DNA of 31,096 nucleotides, from the IMG/VR virus record IMGVR_UViG_2529293246_000004. The stretch is one strand, 5' to 3'. A model generated the notes under the pieces. That model saw only the letters and a program-made list of their open reading frames with translations. It was not told the origin of the DNA and made no database searches. This stretch comes from a virus (taxonomy: Duplodnaviria; Heunggongvirae; Uroviricota; Caudoviricetes). The translations under genes and the position numbers were made by a program. Shown here in pieces: positions 5,413 through 24,968 of the stretch (positions are counted from its first letter, which is position 1; each line of letters begins with the position of its first letter).

Positions 5413-6603
5413 TTAATTGCTGTTAACCGAAGTGACCAGATTTGCCAGGTATTTATCGGTAATACGCTGGCGCAGGGTCAGGTTTTCGAGAGGAGGCACC
5501 GGTGTATAGTCGTAGTCGATATACAGTTTTCCGGCCTTGAGGGTTTCCGCATCGTTGGATTCTTCGCTGAACCAGCAGGTCGCATCCACGATATAGCCGT
5601 TTGTTTTCAGCTCACGGAATTTGGCATTGATGCCGTCAACGATGTCGCGAATCAGCGTTGCGGTGATGGGCTTGTCCACCGCCCACATGTGCGCCTCAGC
5701 CATCGTGTCGGCCAGCACCTGCGCGGTGCGGGTGTAGTTTTCAAAGAGGAACAGCGGGTCATCAGAGCAGGTACGGTTACCCCAGAAGCGGAAACCGTCA
5801 CGGCGAATCAGCGTTGTGACGCCTGACTCATTCAGCAGGTCAGCATCGGTGCCGGACTCCTGCAAATCCCAGAATACAGATGCGCTGATGCCGGTAACAC
5901 CGTTCACCCCGACGTTGGACAGCGTTTTATGCCAGCCCTGCTCCTGGTCGATTCTGGCACGCAGACCCAGCGCACGGGCGGTGGCATACGCGGTGGCGGT
6001 GGTACTGGCAACCGTATCCCATGCGAGGAAATCCGGCCAGATGACCATCAGCTCACGCTGGCTGAAATTCTGACGGTAGGCTTTCACCTCGGAAATGGTC
6101 TTACAGCCCCATGCGCTGATATATCCGAAAGCGCGCAGCTTCTGACAGACTGATGCCAGTGCAACAGCCACCTCTTTGGTATCCAGCCCCGGCACACCAA
6201 GAATACGCGGTTTAACACCGGTTACCGACTCCGCCGCCAGCAGGGCTTTCAGTCCGGTGTACTGACCGTTTTCGTCAGTGGTGCCGATGATATTGGAAAC
6301 GGTCTGCGCGAGTTTCGTTTCTTCGTCGTCGCCGGTTCCGTCTTCCACGCGCACGACAACGGTGACCGGTTTTGACTGGTCAGCGATGGCCTGCAACGAT
6401 GCCGCCAGCGTGCCTTTTTTACCGGCCTTTGCAATCGCGCTCTGCACATTGGTGATCAGCACCGGTTTATTGACGGGGAAGGTTTCCGCATCCGCATCGC
6501 TGGCCGTGCAGACCATGCCAACAATGGCGGTGGATACGGTGGAAATGACGCGGGTGCCGTCGTTAATCTCCAGCACCTGCACGCCGTGATGATAGTCACT
6601 CAT
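5413..6603 (-). CDS. FI: Contractile tail sheath protein FI
   Basis: 396 aa (P2 gpFI length). First gene of the FI-FII-E-T-U-D late operon. Confidence 0.9.
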   Translation of the reverse strand: MSDYHHGVQVLEINDGTRVISTVSTAIVGMVCTASDADAETFPVNKPVLITNVQSAIAKAGKKGTLAASLQAIADQSKPVTVVVRVEDGTGDDEETKLAQTVSNIIGTTDENGQYTGLKALLAAESVTGVKPRILGVPGLDTKEVAVALASVCQKLRAFGYISAWGCKTISEVKAYRQNFSQRELMVIWPDFLAWDTVASTTATAYATARALGLRARIDQEQGWHKTLSNVGVNGVTGISASVFWDLQESGTDADLLNESGVTTLIRRDGFRFWGNRTCSDDPLFLFENYTRTAQVLADTMAEAHMWAVDKPITATLIRDIVDGINAKFRELKTNGYIVDATCWFSEESNDAETLKAGKLYIDYDYTPVPPLENLTLRQRITDKYLANLVTSVNSN

Positions 6604-6700
6604 CCGTTTAACTCCGTGGTTAATGGGTGCAACTATTTTCTGTTGTGCAGAGCATGAGACGCTATTTGACCTGGCTGGTCAGTGGATGAAACAACAGATA
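6604..6700 (-). promoter_or_regulatory. Putative Ogr-dependent late promoter region (PF) upstream of FI
   Basis: Placed by operon logic: non-coding stretch immediately 5' of FI on the minus strand. I could not find a clean TGT-N12-ACA activator site by eye. Confidence 0.3.
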
Positions 6701-6707
6701 AAGAAAA

Positions 6708-6726
6708 GGCGGGCAATTCGCCCGCC
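6708..6726 (-). terminator. GC-rich hairpin followed by a T-tract on the minus strand
   Basis: GGCGGGC-aattc-GCCCGCC perfect 7-bp stem. On the minus strand it is followed by TTTTCTTT. Located between the cargo gene and the FI promoter region. Confidence 0.45.
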
Positions 6727-6862
6727 TGTCCTGATTTGTACTCACTCATTTTCCGACTGACAATTTACATAGCCAAAACACTATCATTTCCCTGACGTTA
6801 AGTTGTATCTTTGATAGGATTAAAAAATGTATAGATAGCTTATACTATTGAGGGAACAAAAA

Positions 6863-7672
6863 ATGACGCAAATTAGTGAACGATGGAAGCACAACGGCAT
6901 TACTAAAGGTTATTGCAATATTTGTGGAAAATATGACTTCCTCACAAAAGATCATGTTCCTCCAAAGTGTGCCATAACCTTAGGTCCTGTTCTTCAGAAA
7001 ACAGTTAGCGAATTTTTTGGTGTTCAGGAACCAGTTAAACCATTAAATGCTAAAAACGGCTCTTATTTCAAAACCATTTGCAGCCACTGTAACAATAAGG
7101 TGTTAGGTGGACTCGACGTTGCAATTGAAAATGTAGCAAAGTCCTTTAAAGAACAGTTGAGTCAATATATGAATGGTATGAATGTATATCCATTCATTAG
7201 AATACCTTTTGATAGCATATCTTTCACTAAGGCTATGATTGGACACGTGCTATCGGCAACTTCAGTTGAAGATTGTAAAAAAGAACCCGTAGATAGCCCC
7301 TTCTATACACCTTTAAAAGATTATGTTTTGGGTAAGAATCCAAGTTTTGAGGAGACTCATGATATTTACTACTGGTTTTACCCACACAGAATGCACATAT
7401 CAGCTCAAAGTGTAGCATTTATGAACGAAGGACATGTAGCATTTATTTGTGCTTTACATTTTTTTCCTATCGGTTTTATTATCACAATTAAAAATGAAGG
7501 AATATACCCTGCACACTCAACAAAATTAGAACTTAAAGATAAATTCCTTACATTTAACATGACATCTGTAAATTATGAGTATACGACATTTCCATTTGTA
7601 AATCTTAAGGGAAACCAAATGTATGCTATAAGCAACGGCCATACATGTGTGAGTTATCCAATAATTAAGTGA
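6863..7672 (+). CDS. Hypothetical cargo protein with N-terminal HNH-like zinc-finger nuclease motif (Z/fun-position moron)
   Basis: ORF 6848..7672 begins at a TTG; the first ATG is at 6863 with GAGGGAA about 8 nt upstream. N-terminus carries C-x2-C (CNIC), then DHVPP, then C-x2-C-N-x-K (CSHCNNK), the HNH/His-Me finger pattern. GC content is visibly low compared with the flanking tail genes. Opposite strand to the neighbouring structural genes. Confidence 0.6.
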   Translation: MTQISERWKHNGITKGYCNICGKYDFLTKDHVPPKCAITLGPVLQKTVSEFFGVQEPVKPLNAKNGSYFKTICSHCNNKVLGGLDVAIENVAKSFKEQLSQYMNGMNVYPFIRIPFDSISFTKAMIGHVLSATSVEDCKKEPVDSPFYTPLKDYVLGKNPSFEETHDIYYWFYPHRMHISAQSVAFMNEGHVAFICALHFFPIGFIITIKNEGIYPAHSTKLELKDKFLTFNMTSVNYEYTTFPFVNLKGNQMYAISNGHTCVSYPIIK

Positions 7673-7726
7673 CTGCTAGATCATAAAATCGACGCAAGTT
7701 CACTTTCTACATATACCATCTATAAT

Positions 7727-7750
7727 GTCCGCTCTTGGCACAGAGCGGAC
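7727..7750. terminator. Perfect 9-bp stem hairpin between convergent cargo gene and G
   Basis: GTCCGCTCT-tggcac-AGAGCGGAC. Sits in the 127-bp gap between the stop of the plus-strand cargo gene (7672) and the stop of minus-strand G (7800). The flanking U-tract is weak on both strands. Confidence 0.4.
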
Positions 7751-7799
7751 TGTCAGATTAGGCTTTACTCTATGCAATAGATATGTAAGCTCATACAAC

Positions 7800-8327
7800 T
7801 TATTGCGGCATTTCCGGCCATTCAGGATTTGCAGGATCCACACGACTGACCAGAACGCTGTAACGCTCCCATGCTTCCAGTCGGCTACGCTCCTCATCTG
7901 TTGCCATGTTCAGTCTGACCGCGCGCTCCAGCGGCAAAATCACGGATTCAGCATCTGCAAGAAGTCTAGCTTTCCGGTTTTCTGCCTGCTGCTGCAATTC
8001 CTCTGCCGTATAAATGCGTTTAATCACTTTGCCATCCTTAAACATCCAGTTCCCTGAAATGTCCGCCCGTCGGTTAGCAGTAATATCCGCCACTTCAACC
8101 ACACTTAATCCATCCGGTCTGATAGCTGTCACATCCTTTTCCACATAGCGGATAATATTATCTTTGTCGTACGCTATTTTTATCGTGTCATCAGCAAAAT
8201 ACTTTTGTTCTTCGTACCAGTTCTTACCATCTTCTGAAAAAAACCAGACAACATCAAAGTCCTTTGTCAATTGATATTGTTCAACCGTTTTTGGATTACC
8301 CGCCGTAATATTTTTTAAATGCTGCAT
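7800..8327 (-). CDS. G: Tail fibre assembly protein (chaperone)
   Basis: 175 aa (P2 gpG length), immediately downstream of H. AT-richer than the core genes. Confidence 0.82.
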
Positions 8328-8330
8328 AAA

Positions 8331-10580
8331 TTATACCTGCGCCACGTTATACCATGTCCCGTTAATGTATTTCTGCACCGGTCTGTAATATACGCCACCA
8401 ATGTTATCGGCAGAGTTTGAGCCGGTATCCTGAACAATAATGCCGGTATATACGCAACCTGACGGAGCCTGATGCGTCCATGTAATACCATTATTTGCTG
8501 GTTTATATGTAGATGCACCGCCCAGCCGCATGTCTCTCACATAACGTGAATCTGACTCAGCTTTGGTGTATGCACCAACATCTCCCGCTGAGGGTTTATG
8601 AGCAGTTGTATATAGTTGCGCCCATCCAGACCAGTTAGCATCTGTGGTATCTCGTCGGGAGCGAATATATGCCGGAGCATGAGCACCGCTGGTTCCACTC
8701 CAGCCAATAAGTAACTCACCCTCTCCTACTGCGGTTACACCAGTGAGATGAAGCACATTACCATAGGCTGTTGGGTAGCCATTGTTGTATGCCTCATACA
8801 TCTGAATACCTGGTGTCCCCTTTACGCTCCCACCTAATGCAGTAACACGGTTTCTGGAAACCAGTGTATTAATATTTATATCGGCAGAGCCATCAAATCT
8901 GACACCATTAATATTTCTTGCGTTCGCTAACTTTGTTGCTGTTGCAGCATTTCCTGAAAGGCTGGAAATAAATGGATGTGAGCAGTAATAACCGCGCCCA
9001 TTTTTAAAATCCAGAATAGCCTGCGCGTTCGTGCTTTCTGTAGCGGGATTAGTTGCCCCCCACTTATATGTCGTCTGACCGACGACATAATCCTCTGTCG
9101 GAACAATAACCGTTAGCCCTTCCTCTGCAAGAATTTGTACAGGGAAAGCTCTGGCTTCAACATAAAAAACACTACATACATCATCATCTTTCAGGCTTGT
9201 AACAATGGAATGAATTGAACGCTCATTAGTCTGATACGTCCAGAAATAACCTGCCGCATATGAACCACGATCAGTCCAGCCTCCGGGCATAACCATGCCA
9301 TTAAACTCGCAGTTATTCATTACATAATCGCTGTTATAACAACCAGTGGAAATAACGACGCGGGATGCCATTTCTCCTGAAAGGCTGGCAGCACGGCGAA
9401 AGATAACGGGATACCACTTCCCGGCAACGACATTTGCAGGGGCTGCAAACGAATACTTTCGCATTCCCTTTTTCTTATCCACTTCACCTTTGCTGTAAAC
9501 ATTAATGTTACTCAGGAAGCGCCCTTTATCAGGAATATCCGCACCGTTCTGATCTTTCTGAAGACGTTTTTCAGCATTGTCATAGGCAGACTTCACCGCT
9601 TTTGGTGTTGCAGCCAGCGTTTCAGAATCACTGTTGGTGGCGCTACTGAGCTGGACAAGACCTTTTCGCGCCGTGGTGGCATCCTGTGCAGTGTATTTCC
9701 CGTTAGCAAGGTCATACGCGGCCTTTACCGCCTTTGGCGTTGCCGCAAGCGTTTCAGAATCGCTGTTGGTGACGCTACTGAGCTGGACAAGACCTTTTCG
9801 CGCTGTGGTGGCGTCCTGTGCAGTGTATTTCCCGTTAGCAAGGTCATACGCGGCCTTTACCGCTTTTGGTGTTGCGGCGAGCGTTTCAGACGTGCTGTTG
9901 GTGGCACTACTGAGCTGGACAAGGCCTTTTCGCGCTGTGGTGGCGTCCTGTGCGGTATATTTCCCGTTAGCAAGGTCATACGCGGCCTTTACCGCTTTCG
10001 GCGTTGCGGCCAGTGTTTCAGATGTGCTGTTGGTCGCACTGCTTAACTGAGTAAAACCTTTTGCGGTCAGCGAGGCGTCCGGGTGACGTCGTGACTGTTC
10101 GTGCTCTGCAATTTTGTCATCAACGTAATCCTGTGTCGCCATCACCGTTGTGGTGTCAATGGTCAGCTCCACCGAGGCCACACTGCTGACGATGATGACC
10201 ATGCGACAGGTCTGCGAACGCCCTGAGCCTTCGGCAAGAGCTGGCTTATAACTTTCGGCCATGTTCGCCACGGCAATTAACGTTCCCGCATCATCGTACA
10301 GGCCAAGCTCACGCATCCAGAAACCGCCCACCTCCGGCGGAATAACCAGCTCTGCGATAATATAATTACTGTTTCGTTTGTCCTGGCTGATTTTGTTCAG
10401 CGTATGTCGCCAGACTTCGTGGATAAGCCCAGTCTGTCCGGCATCCGGGACAGGCAATTTACCACCGCCATCCCCGACGGCCATCGTGGTAATGTTGACC
10501 TTCCGCCCTCCCGGTGCGGTTGCCGCTGCCAGCTTTGCTGCACCGGCAGTGGTGATAACGGTTTTGAATTTTGTGCTCAT
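8331..10580 (-). CDS. H: Tail fibre protein H
   Basis: 749 aa. N-terminus MSTKFKTVITTAGAAKLAAA is typical of P2 gpH. ATG at 10580..10578 with GAGGA upstream. Contains four tandem copies of a 44-aa fibre repeat (LSSATNSTSETLAATPKAVKAAYDLANGKYTAQDATTARKGLVQ). The C-terminal half is divergent and AT-richer. Confidence 0.9.
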   Translation of the reverse strand: MSTKFKTVITTAGAAKLAAATAPGGRKVNITTMAVGDGGGKLPVPDAGQTGLIHEVWRHTLNKISQDKRNSNYIIAELVIPPEVGGFWMRELGLYDDAGTLIAVANMAESYKPALAEGSGRSQTCRMVIIVSSVASVELTIDTTTVMATQDYVDDKIAEHEQSRRHPDASLTAKGFTQLSSATNSTSETLAATPKAVKAAYDLANGKYTAQDATTARKGLVQLSSATNSTSETLAATPKAVKAAYDLANGKYTAQDATTARKGLVQLSSVTNSDSETLAATPKAVKAAYDLANGKYTAQDATTARKGLVQLSSATNSDSETLAATPKAVKSAYDNAEKRLQKDQNGADIPDKGRFLSNINVYSKGEVDKKKGMRKYSFAAPANVVAGKWYPVIFRRAASLSGEMASRVVISTGCYNSDYVMNNCEFNGMVMPGGWTDRGSYAAGYFWTYQTNERSIHSIVTSLKDDDVCSVFYVEARAFPVQILAEEGLTVIVPTEDYVVGQTTYKWGATNPATESTNAQAILDFKNGRGYYCSHPFISSLSGNAATATKLANARNINGVRFDGSADININTLVSRNRVTALGGSVKGTPGIQMYEAYNNGYPTAYGNVLHLTGVTAVGEGELLIGWSGTSGAHAPAYIRSRRDTTDANWSGWAQLYTTAHKPSAGDVGAYTKAESDSRYVRDMRLGGASTYKPANNGITWTHQAPSGCVYTGIIVQDTGSNSADNIGGVYYRPVQKYINGTWYNVAQV
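9590..10080. repeat. Tandem direct repeats, 132-bp unit, about 3.7 copies, inside H
   Basis: Near-identical 132-nt units begin at about 9615, 9747, 9879 and 10011 (agcgtttcagaatc...ctgagctggacaag...). They are in frame and encode the 44-aa repeat. The repetitive plus-strand ORF 9634..10050 is their antisense shadow. Confidence 0.85.
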
Positions 10581-22253: not shown

Positions 22254-22257
22254 ACAT

Positions 22258-22278
22258 CGCCGCCTGCGGGCGGCTTTT
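22258..22278 (+). terminator. Rho-independent terminator after Q
   Basis: CGCCC-tgc-GGGCG stem-loop followed by gc and TTTTTT, 5 nt past the Q stop codon. Confidence 0.6.
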
Positions 22279-22422
22279 TTACACCCCGTCATCACGCCCT
22301 CACACGCTCACCACCGCACAAAACAGCCCGCAGACACACCAACGCCCCGGCGCACAATCTAAACGCCATTACGACGCGCTGAGACGCTGAAAAAATAAAA
22401 TCAGCACCACCGCCAGCGCGCA

Positions 22423-22441
22423 GTGCTTTCCCCGCCTCGCC
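22423..22441. other. cos: cos site (19-nt cohesive-end sequence), internal to the element
   Basis: Plus strand reads GTGCTTTCCCCGCCTCGCC, the reverse complement of GGCGAGGCGGGGAAAGCAC, which I recall as the P2 cohesive end. The adjacent reverse-complement sequence (ACTGCGCGCTG...GGTGGTGCTGATT) also resembles the P2 left end. Confidence 0.8.
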
Positions 22442-22679
22442 CGCCCGCTTCATGGAGCGGTTTTAATGCAGTTGCATAGATACTATGGATCCGCACCAGT
22501 CCTGACCGCACGCAGCCTGAACGGACATCCCCGACGCATGCAAAAACATTCACTTGTTGCATGCAACGGCTTATTTAATGACAAACCAACTTAAATTTAC
22601 AAAATCCACAGGTATGGATACTTTGCGAACATGATAGGCTTACGAGAATTATCGTGCCTGTTTTTGAACGGAGAAAGTT

Positions 22680-23621
22680 ATGCAAGGTGAAGTTGACGAA
22701 CAGCAACCAAATGAGATTATTTCGGAGTTTGGATACTATCCAGTAGAAGTTAACATTGAGACTGAACAATTTTCTTTGCGTACTTTACCCGGTCTTATTG
22801 AGAAAGTGGAACGTATTAACAATGATAAAAACGTTGTTAATGGTTGGATATACCCTGGGAATCGAGAGGTATATAACCTTAATGGTGACTCATGCACAAT
22901 GCCTTATAGTTACCGAGTATTCGGCATGCCCAAAACGCACACACTAAAATTAAAAAACACATCCTCGTTAGAAACTCTCAACTTTGTTGTGTGGTGCCTC
23001 TCTTTTTTCAAGGGTATAAGATTGACAACCACTGACGCTGGTTTTCTTGATGCAACCACTATCAAGCCCACTAAGTTAACCGATTTTATTCTCGTTGGAT
23101 GCTCTGAAAAAGAAGTCATAGAACTGGCTCTTAATTATATAACTAACAAACAAAAGGATGCGCACTCCCCCAAAAGAATTGCGGCAGTGGTGCATGCGCT
23201 ATTCTTATCTCAAAACCCACAATACCTTCCTTTTGAAAAATTCCAGTACCTTTACATGGCACTTGATGGTTGCTTTGCTTTATCGTGGGCTGAGCATGAC
23301 AAGGCTCCTGATAAAACCCAGCCAAATCATTCCAAGCGATTAAAGTGGATGTGCAGAATTTATGGGTTATCAATCCCCACATGGGTATCAGGCAAAAAAA
23401 ACATTTCTGGCATCCGCAATGATAATTTTCATGAGGCTATTTTTTTTGGCCAACCACTTGGTTTTTCCAGTGTTAACAACAATCAATATGGTAACGATAT
23501 ATTACTGCAAATGCAGAAACTCGTTTGTCGCCTATTAGCGGCAATACTGTCGGTTAATGATTGCGGTTATCTCAAATCTTCGGTCAACTCACGAGAGTAC
23601 CATTCATTAAAATTAACTTAA
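22680..23621 (+). CDS. Hypothetical cargo protein, 313 aa, at the position P2 uses for old
   Basis: ATG at 22680 with GGAGA 7 nt upstream. AT-rich. I recognise no conserved motif and see no Walker A P-loop. Opposite strand to the early operon, as P2 old is. Confidence 0.6.
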   Translation: MQGEVDEQQPNEIISEFGYYPVEVNIETEQFSLRTLPGLIEKVERINNDKNVVNGWIYPGNREVYNLNGDSCTMPYSYRVFGMPKTHTLKLKNTSSLETLNFVVWCLSFFKGIRLTTTDAGFLDATTIKPTKLTDFILVGCSEKEVIELALNYITNKQKDAHSPKRIAAVVHALFLSQNPQYLPFEKFQYLYMALDGCFALSWAEHDKAPDKTQPNHSKRLKWMCRIYGLSIPTWVSGKKNISGIRNDNFHEAIFFGQPLGFSSVNNNQYGNDILLQMQKLVCRLLAAILSVNDCGYLKSSVNSREYHSLKLT

Positions 23622-23652
23622 TGCTAACGCCTCACTTCGTTCGTTGTTCAAC

Positions 23653-23690
23653 CCCGCCAGCACTGAAAACATGTTTCATTGCTGGCGGGG
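23653..23690 (+). terminator. Long hairpin downstream of the 313-aa gene
   Basis: CCCCGCCAGC ... GCTGGCGGGG 10-bp stem around an 18-nt loop that is itself palindromic, followed by TTCTCT. Begins about 30 nt after the stop codon. Confidence 0.45.
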
Positions 23691-23941
23691 TTCTCTATCG
23701 TCTGCGTGGTGGCGGCGCAAGGCTGGACTGACCGATATAGTTAAGCTGTTCGTAATTATCCCTGACTATTTCGGCACACCCGACTAGCTCATCGGGCGTC
23801 AGATTTTCGTTGACCATAATCTGCTGTAAACGGTGAACAATGGCCATCAACCTGACACTTTTGGTGTTATATGTGGTATCTCACATGAGATTACTGACCA
23901 AGGTGCATCTTGGTTGACTCATTTCATATCCATCCACACCA

Positions 23942-24622
23942 CTACATCTTTATTGCATATTTATTAAAAGACGCCCAGTTCAACAAAAAAACATTATTCA
24001 TATACCATTCAATATAATTTTTATTTTTAGATTGACTGTCAAGTAGCACACAAACATCAACCTGTTTATCAATCAATTTTGCAATATAAACCACAAACTC
24101 AACACTCGAATATCTCTTTGTGCCTAGCAAATATAATATTTCATCTGACAAATAATTAGACTCATGTGAAAAGACATTATCATTTAACAAAATCAATCCG
24201 CCAATCGAGTCATTTAAATCCAAAACATCCTTTGTTGCATTTATTTGCTTATTAGCTTCTTTAACTACCTTTGTTTTAATATTTTCATAAGCAAAGTTCA
24301 TTATATCATTTCTAAATCGCTTTGAGTCTGGGTGTCTTTTTATCAACTCTTCTAAATGAATAGCACCATGCCAGTTTTTTGCAAGCCAACTATCAGTTTT
24401 AACCAACTCATTCAGTTTATCATTGACATTCTTGACCCTGTCAGAAAAAAGACTTTTCATCTCCAAAATTATCTTTTTATTATCAATAAGATAATCTGCC
24501 ATCTTGCGATTCTGACCATCCTTCATCCGGAACTTATGATGAATATCATCAATAGAAATCCCTTTTTCATGCTCAACAATGAATCTCTTAACATTGTTTT
24601 CTAATTCGCTGTATTGTTTCAT
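23942..24622 (-). CDS. Hypothetical cargo protein, 226 aa, at the position P2 uses for tin
   Basis: ATG at 24622 with GGGGGA upstream. Markedly AT-rich, Lys/Asn-rich protein with no motif I recognise. Directly downstream of a small gene on the same strand. Confidence 0.6.
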   Translation of the reverse strand: MKQYSELENNVKRFIVEHEKGISIDDIHHKFRMKDGQNRKMADYLIDNKKIILEMKSLFSDRVKNVNDKLNELVKTDSWLAKNWHGAIHLEELIKRHPDSKRFRNDIMNFAYENIKTKVVKEANKQINATKDVLDLNDSIGGLILLNDNVFSHESNYLSDEILYLLGTKRYSSVEFVVYIAKLIDKQVDVCVLLDSQSKNKNYIEWYMNNVFLLNWASFNKYAIKM

Positions 24623-24649
24623 TCTTTCCCCCGTGAATTTTATTGTGAT

Positions 24650-24841
24650 TCACTTACGTGGACGACACAGCATACCACTTTTACTCTCTGCTATTTCCAG
24701 TAAATCAATGGAGAATGACTCCTCGTGCAAAACTCCTTCTTTATCATGCCAAATACATTTAGCATGAGTCTCAGTAGAGTCAGATACAGTCATTTTAAAT
24801 CCACCGCTTTTCAAACAAACAACATCTGCAGGCTTTAACAT
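24650..24841 (-). CDS. Small DUF2158/YodC-like protein, 63 aa
   Basis: ORF 24650..24925 trimmed to the ATG at 24841, which has GGAGA 5-6 nt upstream. Sequence MLKPADVVCLKSGGFKMTVSDSTETHAKCIWHDKEGVLHEESF resembles the GD-VV-LKSGGP-MTV...C-W core of YodC-like small proteins. First gene of a two-gene minus-strand unit. Confidence 0.55.
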   Translation of the reverse strand: MLKPADVVCLKSGGFKMTVSDSTETHAKCIWHDKEGVLHEESFSIDLLEIAESKSGMLCRPRK

Positions 24842-24968
24842 TTTTGTCTCCAACATTTTTAAGTAATGCATTATAACATAATGATATTGACGTAGATTTA
24901 ATGCATGCAACCATATAAAAAACAATCAATTACAGTCAAAACTGCTTAATACTGTATAGATGAGATCA

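Follow-up and report, generated by a model that had tools for sequence, protein, structure and literature searches.

The gene between FI and G

The window, a stretch of 31,096 nucleotides (nt) of viral DNA (IMG/VR record IMGVR_UViG_2529293246_000004), is a prophage of the P2 type, and its genes stand in the customary order D, U, T, E, FII, FI ... G, H, I, J, W, V ... N, O, P, Q ... A ... int. The gene studied here, which we call the cargo gene, is located between FI and G, in the slot that P2 uses for Z/fun, and is encoded on the strand opposite to the late genes (Table 1). A sequence-only reading of the window had placed an open reading frame (ORF) of 269 amino acids (aa) at this position and on this strand; the coordinates and the neighboring genes agree with that reading. 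The same reading had described the gene as low in guanine and cytosine (GC), and the GC content is indeed 0.346 in the ORF, versus 0.567 in FI and 0.518 in the whole window. The ATG is preceded by the Shine-Dalgarno sequence GAGGG. The protein family to which the gene product is assigned, PHROG 21495, is annotated as having unknown function.

Alleles of the cargo gene from six genera (E. coli, Kluyvera, Erwinia, Enterobacter, Photorhabdus, and Rouxiella) are all intact ORFs of 269 codons. The ratio of nonsynonymous to synonymous substitution rates (dN/dS) was 0.03-0.17 for alleles with a dS of at least 0.18; the copy from phage pro147, one carrier of the gene in a P2 setting, is nearly identical to the one in the window and too close to inform this ratio. 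The cargo gene is real, under purifying selection, and horizontally mobile.

Close relatives in the Gammaproteobacteria number 86 and are about 270 aa long. A profile search of 1.84 billion representative sequences returned 1,678 clusters (at 50% identity) with E values of 1e-3 or lower, 307 of which had E values of 1e-30 or lower. Nearly all members of the 1,678 clusters are 260-300 aa long and match from end to end. In an alignment of 213 diverse members, C18, C21, H31, P34, C73, C76, N77, G127, H128, W171, and P202 are invariant; P33 and D85 are 99% conserved, D30 is 98% conserved, and P244 is conserved in at least 98%. Domain swapping, with an effector joined to a separable sensor, was considered and rejected. 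The matches restricted to the N-terminus proved to be truncated or frameshifted copies, and the protein is therefore one unit rather than an effector fused to an exchangeable sensor. The labels that relatives carry in the databases, "chaperonin" or "metal-binding protein", are both judged to be mislabels; the NCBI name "chaperonin" was not supported by any search and looks like a propagated mis-annotation.

Table 1. Features of the window discussed in the text, with positions counted from its first nucleotide; conservation refers to the alignment of 213 family members.
Feature	Position	Strand	Details
FI, tail sheath	5413..6603	-	Left neighbor of the cargo gene
Left hairpin of the window	6707..6727	-	Free energy (dG) -20.1 kcal/mol, z -5.4 versus shuffles; followed by a T-run on the minus strand; terminator-like
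Left junction	6776..6786		11-base-pair (bp) AAACACTATCA, common to the P2 backbone and the cassette
Cassette leader	6787..6862	+	Travels with the gene; includes the Shine-Dalgarno sequence; 93-95% identical in Kluyvera, Erwinia, Rac-like prophage, and IncF plasmids
Cargo gene	6863..7672	+	269 aa plus stop; RefSeq WP_000192157.1; UniProt A0A376TD18; PHROG 21495
Putative first zinc knuckle, C18-x2-C21	6914..6925	+	Both Cys invariant; aligns with the beginning of Pfam profile HNH_5
D30-H31-V-P33-P34	6950..6964	+	Candidate general-base dyad of a His-Me finger, from conservation and its place at the end of predicted strand 24-32 (AlphaFold)
Putative second zinc knuckle and candidate metal-binding Asn, C73-x2-C76-N77-N-K79	7079..7099	+	At the junction of strand 67-73 and helix 74-80
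D85	7115..7117	+	99% conserved; start of long helix 85-103
G127-H128	7241..7246	+	Invariant; helix 118-131, within the region without a fold match
Aromatic motif, Y169-Y-W171-F-Y173-P174	7367..7384	+	W171 invariant
Right end element	7727..7755		Hairpin GTCCGCTCT-TGGCAC-AGAGCGGAC, then TGTCA
G, tail-fibre assembly	7800..8327	-	Right neighbor of the cargo gene
ORF in the old/tin slot	22680..23621	+	313 aa; without a Pfam, PADLOC, or NCBIfam family
ORF in the old/tin slot	23942..24622	-	226 aa; without a Pfam, PADLOC, or NCBIfam family
ORF in the old/tin slot	24650..24925	-	DUF2158

The probable HNH-type site and the predicted fold

The motifs that the sequence-only reading had quoted are present exactly as given: C18-N-I-C21, eight residues, D30-H31-V-P-P34, and then C73-S-H-C76-N77-N-K79. 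Two CxxC knuckles, a D-H dyad, and an asparagine right after the second knuckle are together the signature of a putative zinc-finger HNH (His-Me finger) nuclease. The same order of motifs, CxxC, D-H, and CxxC-N, is found in the HNH nucleases with a Cys4 zinc site (HNH_5, PF14279; T4 endonuclease VII, PF02945). In endonuclease VII these residues are C23/C26, D40-H41, and C58/C61-N62, with the Asn directly after the second knuckle. The cargo protein differs from HNH_5 proteins and endonuclease VII in that it has a helix-and-loop insertion between the D-H dyad and the second knuckle, and in that it forms a globule of about 270 aa with an unmatched remainder.

The sequence-only reading had interpreted the protein as HNH-like and had proposed a Pfam search with HNH profiles as a check. 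In this search the query protein itself scored 12.3 bits against HNH_5, far below the gathering cut-off of 27.5 bits; what stands of the interpretation comes from the family, through its conservation and its weak matches. Among 41 members scanned against Pfam, 28 match HNH_5 and four match Endonuclease_7, all below threshold. Distant members each align with one half of the HNH_5 profile, either the first or the second, the second half being where the stretch around the second knuckle aligns. The sole relative to pass is P0288 (E value of 1.7e-19 to the N-terminal profile), which scores 28.8 bits against HNH_5 and may thereby link the query family to HNH transitively. A sequence search against the PDB gave no match, either with the query protein or with the full-length profile. 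When the N-terminal profile, built on residues 8-104, was used, there was one match at E values up to 10, the HNH endonuclease 4h9d; this match is weak, has the motif halves in order, and includes the second-knuckle stretch.

The AlphaFold model of the protein is confident, with a predicted local distance difference test score of 87.7 and a predicted template modeling score of 0.89. In the model, strand 24-32 has H31 near its end, and strand 67-73 leads into helix 74-80, the beginning of which contains C76-N77. The predicted arrangement is beta-beta-alpha with an insertion of about 35 residues; the helix and loop between the D-H dyad and the second knuckle come to about 41 residues. Three elements by which an HNH site is recognized are present in the query family: a D-H dyad where the first strand ends, an Asn at the start of the helix after the second strand, and two CxxC knuckles. 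We consider it probable, from these sequence and model comparisons, that the cargo protein is an HNH-type nuclease. Its nuclease chemistry is inferred from the invariant residues, zinc binding by the Cys4 site is predicted, and D85 is a possible further metal or active-site residue.

The sequence-only reading could not assign the remainder of the protein, and this has not changed: the non-HNH part of the model, about 170 residues, matched no solved or viral structure. It also has no similarity to any modified-base reader domain (SRA, EVE/ASCH/YTH-like, winged helix, and others), and Pfam detected no NUMOD, IENR1, or helix-turn-helix DNA-binding module in the query protein. A ligand- or base-binding role for the aromatic motif Y169-P174 is speculation.

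A hairpin-ended cassette and its contexts

The homology of the window to P2 runs to position 6786 and resumes at 7736, which leaves a foreign insert of about 6787..7735. The sequence-only reading had described the gene as bracketed by two hairpins. Both hairpins are confirmed, and their stability far exceeds that of shuffled sequences (the right one, at 7727-7750, has a perfect 9-bp stem, with dG -16.2/-17.9 and z -3.8/-5.0 for the two strands). However, the limits of P2 homology just given place the left hairpin in the P2 backbone and not in the cargo; it lies inside a segment, 6604-6786, that is 95-98% identical among the P2-like phages compared. Of the two, the right hairpin alone is an end element of the insert itself.

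The window was compared to the copies in Kluyvera, Erwinia, a Rac-like prophage, and plasmids. The DNA common to all of these runs from 6776 to 7742/7750 with 91-95% identity and corresponds exactly to the non-P2 insert. In the non-P2 contexts the common unit is about 1.02-1.04 kilobases (kb) long, and nothing beyond it is shared. Copies outside the window have a left cassette hairpin, GTCCGCTTT-GAGCGA-AAAGCAGAC-TGTCAC, 116 nt before the ATG; the right cassette hairpin, GTCCGCTsT-TGGCAC-ArAGCGGAC, is located 58 nt after the stop codon. The left cassette hairpin is absent from the window, where backbone and cassette join at the 11-bp left junction. The homology breakpoints between contexts fall inside the terminal hairpins.

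The exact hairpin motif occurs once in the window, with 0 occurrences expected, and is present in 73 IMG/VR contigs. Among P2-like IMG/VR contigs, a hairpin with the TGGCAC loop is found 48-63 nt past G in about 40, and about 15 have a hairpin with the GAGCGA loop at 187-193 nt before FI. The distance from FI to the right hairpin takes at least 10 values in the IMG/VR contigs, ranging from 1.2 to 3.6 kb. Because the position of the hairpins is fixed while the size of the cargo varies, the hairpins are fixed borders of the hotspot whatever the cargo. P2's own Z/fun cargo is flanked by the same hairpins, and GenBank entry AJ512685 (the Z region of P2-EC67) annotates a "left/right inverted repeat" at the FI-G locus. 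Two related hairpins with 9-bp stems, each followed by TGTCA, mark the limits of the FI-G hotspot in P2-like phages; about eight contigs that bear the motif have no P2 gene nearby.

The hairpins also bear on the possibility that the protein is a selfish nuclease, either a free-standing homing-type HNH endonuclease or the mover of its own hairpin-ended cassette, whose spread would be self-propagation and would not reflect a benefit to the host. HNH is a classic homing-endonuclease fold, and a discrete unit of about 1 kb moves between unrelated backbones with breakpoints inside its terminal hairpins. The AT-rich cargo gene lies between conserved phage genes, as do free-standing phage HNH homing endonucleases such as I-HmuI and the T4 Mob proteins, which share with it the low GC content and the self-contained movement. 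The main argument against this explanation is that both hairpins bound many unrelated cargoes, as the range of FI-to-hairpin distances and the Z/fun cargo of P2 indicate, and are therefore not specific to the cargo gene. In contrast to I-HmuI and the Mob proteins, the cargo protein has none of the recognized DNA-binding modules named above, its insertion contexts have no common target gene, its end hairpins are shared with unrelated cargo, and it is found in temperate elements, plasmids, and islands. Purifying selection also persists across deep divergence. We consider a selfish nuclease quite unlikely. With respect to mobility only, the cassette resembles the attC cassettes of integrons, which are likewise promoter-poor, carry a single gene, and have imperfect palindromes as ends with the junctions inside them. 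However, the ends of the cargo cassette are not attC-like, there is no linked integrase, and hairpins are present at both ends with the different loops GAGCGA and TGGCAC.

The tail-fibre assembly gene G is mosaic in the P2-like contigs that carry the cargo family in the FI-G slot: its product is either about 78% or about 98% identical in amino acid sequence to the G of the window, whereas FI is 97-99% identical. Contigs with a nearly identical (99%) cargo allele carry both types of G, at 78% in L001 and L042-L044 and at 99% in L010. This mosaicism suggests that the right hairpin marks a recombination joint.

The gene was detected, in any context, in 141 of 5,426 complete E. coli genomes. The junction between P2 flank and cassette is found in 25 of the 141, and about 990 genomes have that P2 flank. 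The common ~95% allele (WP_000161640.1) is found in a Rac-like lambdoid prophage, where it is flanked by the replication genes on one side and the nin-like region on the other and lies on the strand opposite to its neighbors, and in multi-resistance IncFII plasmids (including an NDM plasmid; pM505-a, pNDM_2_P21_SE1_04.20), where it lies directly beside IS26. The gene therefore also circulates with resistance-plasmid mosaics; 29 of the gene-bearing places in the complete E. coli genomes lie on plasmids.

We surveyed the viral context of the family in 51 IMG/VR loci. In P2-like contigs, the gene is located in the FI-G slot (5 loci), in the portal-to-gpA (old/tin) slot (about 6), after gene D (3-4), or beside the integrase (2). 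The other viral loci lack a neighboring P2 gene, and most of them contain the ~95% allele. Relatives occupy the old/tin position in Tatumella and Aeromonas genomes as well, and in Vibrio a homolog with a DUF2726 protein as its neighbor closes a filamentous prophage. The family has at least eight unrelated insertion contexts. Clustering of the ORFs at 28 genome loci revealed no conserved neighbor gene. An ORF of 200-223 aa adjoins the homolog in Kluyvera (L012, 9201-9803) and in Enterobacter (L014, 10949-11620), in differing orientations. Its product has an N-terminal membrane segment and a coiled coil, and the Kluyvera copy has no Pfam or PADLOC match. This ORF could be an occasional partner or a separate cargo; as a candidate for a partner gene it was rejected, as it adjoins the gene at these two loci only and no partner is conserved.

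Two promoter-like sites are located at the 3' end of the cassette. The first, at 7699-7726 (+), reads TTCACT-16 nt-TATAAT (10 of 12) and lies between the stop codon of the cargo gene and the right hairpin; it is present in every cassette copy compared, and transcription from it would run into the hairpin and, in P2, be antisense to G. The second is on the minus strand, at 7709-7680 (-). Sites on both strands, with the plus-strand site kept in all copies, would suit a toxin for element maintenance or bacterial competition that is restrained by an unseen antitoxin, for example an antisense RNA from the cassette, and a lone nuclease does need restraint. However, the number of promoter-like sites overall is not above that in shuffled sequences (4 observed, 4.4 expected), and the unit of about 1 kb leaves no room for a second protein gene. 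The cargo protein has no signal peptide and no secretion-associated neighbor, and no toxin-antitoxin family was matched in Pfam, NCBIfam, or PADLOC. A toxin appears to us very unlikely.

A candidate role in phage defense

The Z/fun hotspot held three of the defense systems found in PMC9519451, and the P2 FI-G hotspot is described in bioRxiv 10.1101/2024.10.15.618418. Among the systems named for two P2 hotspots are PD-T4-5, PD-T4-9/CmdTAC, and PD-T4-10 (PMC9519451; 10.1101/2024.10.15.618418). The cargo gene resembles P2 Z/fun and the defense systems of the P2 hotspots in that it is located between FI and G, is AT-rich, and forms its own transcription unit; in contrast, its product has no sequence relationship to Z/fun or to the PD-T4 systems, and P2's own cargo is a different protein of 300 aa. 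No PADLOC model matches the query even at E values up to 10; PADLOC should include the PD-T4 systems. Because the Z/fun slot is a known defense hotspot and HNH nucleases are common defense effectors, the kind of system proposed here is already known, whereas the cargo family itself is undescribed. Pfam, NCBIfam, and PADLOC have no model for the family, it is not in the DefensePredictor supplements, and literature searches on phage pro147 and on HNH genes in P2 hotspots yielded nothing about the cargo protein. It is a candidate single-gene HNH defense nuclease outside every named defense system.

Several homologs in chromosomal islands have defense genes as neighbors. A type I CBASS pair (cyclase, E value of 1e-115; 2TM effector, E value of 5e-72) was found near the homolog at five loci by ORF clustering, at four of these within the nearest-five set; the CBASS-bearing loci also contain resolvase, integrase, and helicase genes. 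AbiTii (E value of 1e-34) lies beside the Rouxiella homolog, and ATPases of the PtuA/GajA/AriA/Old type are near homologs in four cases. The neighbors of the Plesiomonas homolog are HEPN_AbiU2, SduA_C, Fic, and IS110, and those of the Motilimonas homolog include Tox-MPTase4 and KptA-HTH genes. With the HNH effectors PtuB of Septu and ZorE of Zorya, the family would share the use of HNH chemistry in anti-phage defense, and PtuA-like ATPases are among the neighbors just listed. However, PtuB and ZorE need partner genes, whereas the cargo family has neither a conserved neighbor nor a PADLOC match. EcoKMcrA, a modification-dependent (Type IV) restriction enzyme of the HNH kind carried by prophage e14, has its HNH domain at the C-terminus and reads 5-methylcytosine with a separate N-terminal domain; in the cargo protein, the HNH motif is N-terminal, and the remainder is unlike any reader domain.

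We regard it as somewhat more probable than its opposite that the cargo protein is a stand-alone HNH nuclease serving phage defense, with the defense part drawn from genomic context. The protein would be a cytoplasmic, metal-dependent His-Me finger nuclease in which C18, C21, C73, and C76 hold a structural zinc, the catalytic divalent metal is bound by D30 and N77, and H31 serves as general base, the HNH core being embedded in a compact fold of about 270 aa that has no described relative. Carried as a single-gene cassette on temperate phages, plasmids, and islands, it would be expressed from the prophage and cut the DNA of infecting phages. The unit of about 1 kb moves without a methyltransferase, antitoxin, or other partner, and substrate specificity or activation upon infection would therefore have to protect the host: the enzyme would either recognize a feature missing from the DNA of the host or become active only once a phage infects. 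Such a feature might be a modified base (Type IV-like, as for McrA) or a replication or recombination structure (as for endonuclease VII). That the non-HNH part, with the invariant G127-H128 and W171 and the YYWFYP motif, supplies the specificity is speculation, and dependence on a modification is pure conjecture. Direct cleavage, Type IV-like or structure-specific, is slightly favored over abortive infection, although the data do not separate the two.

Several observations count against a defense nuclease. In addition to the low Pfam score of the query, NCBIfam gave no match to it, and PADLOC-DB v2.0.0 (2023) gave 0 matches for the query and for 10 distant members. No consensus sigma-70 promoter upstream of the cargo ORF, the leader 6787..6862 included, reached the threshold of the scan. 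The defense-neighbor cases are anecdotal and come without a matched control; in the IncF plasmids, the neighbors are IS26, a transporter, and a DUF2254 gene, with no defense genes among them. The FI-G locus also carries non-defense cargo, such as tail-fibre swaps and invertases (10.1101/2024.10.15.618418). Literature searches returned no paper that names the accessions of the family, and no experimental report was found on WP_000192157, on WP_000161640-type alleles, or on A0A376TD18.

Another explanation is a lysogenic-conversion or housekeeping function unrelated to defense, such as DNA repair or recombination, a regulator, or a zinc protein with an HNH-like site that only binds. In its favor, the query fails every curated threshold, most of its fold is unmatched, the hotspots hold mixed cargo, and the plasmid contexts are not defense-like. 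However, degenerate HNH domains usually lose the D-H dyad and the Asn, and in the 213 aligned members H31 and N77 are invariant and D30 is nearly so. P2-like phages carry the gene in several defense-type hotspots, and it is also found next to CBASS, AbiTii, and Shedu-type genes. We consider a function of this kind unlikely. P2 hotspots may also hold anti-defense genes, and nucleases play such roles in some phages; the cargo protein could then be a counter-defense factor or an inter-phage weapon used in the prophage's own lytic cycle, for example to degrade the DNA of the host or of a rival element. The location of the gene outside the late operons and on the opposite strand, and its presence in chromosomal islands and plasmids without a phage, make this highly improbable.

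If the defense reading is correct, a widespread family (the 1,678 clusters and 141 E. coli genomes reported above) joins the one-gene anti-phage nucleases. The sharp question is then how a lone HNH enzyme without a methyltransferase or antitoxin spares its host, and the approximately 170 residues without a structural relative would be a new specificity or sensor module. The anatomy of the cassette provides a handle on the exchange of cargo between P2 hotspots and lambdoid prophages and resistance plasmids, which recent surveys call unexplained: the same unit of about 1 kb, with related end hairpins and breakpoints inside them, is found in all three alike. A broader proposal is that recombination within the 9-bp-stem hairpins swaps defense genes among P2-like phages, lambdoid prophages, plasmids, and islands, in a manner similar to attC sites with integron cassettes, and that the cargo gene founds a family of single-protein immune nucleases, with an HNH site in a new fold and partner-free discrimination between phage and host. 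We offer this combination tentatively and consider it less likely than not.

The second P2 hotspot of the window, between the portal gene Q and gene A (old/tin), spans 22254-24968. It is low in GC (0.28-0.41) and contains three ORFs (Table 1), of which those of 313 aa and 226 aa are a further pair of candidate cargo genes. In the tail-fibre gene H, a 132-nt tandem repeat at 9579-10034 (3.5 copies, 91% match) encodes repeated "...SSATNSTSETLAATPKAVKAAYDLANGKYTAQDATTARKGLVQL" units.

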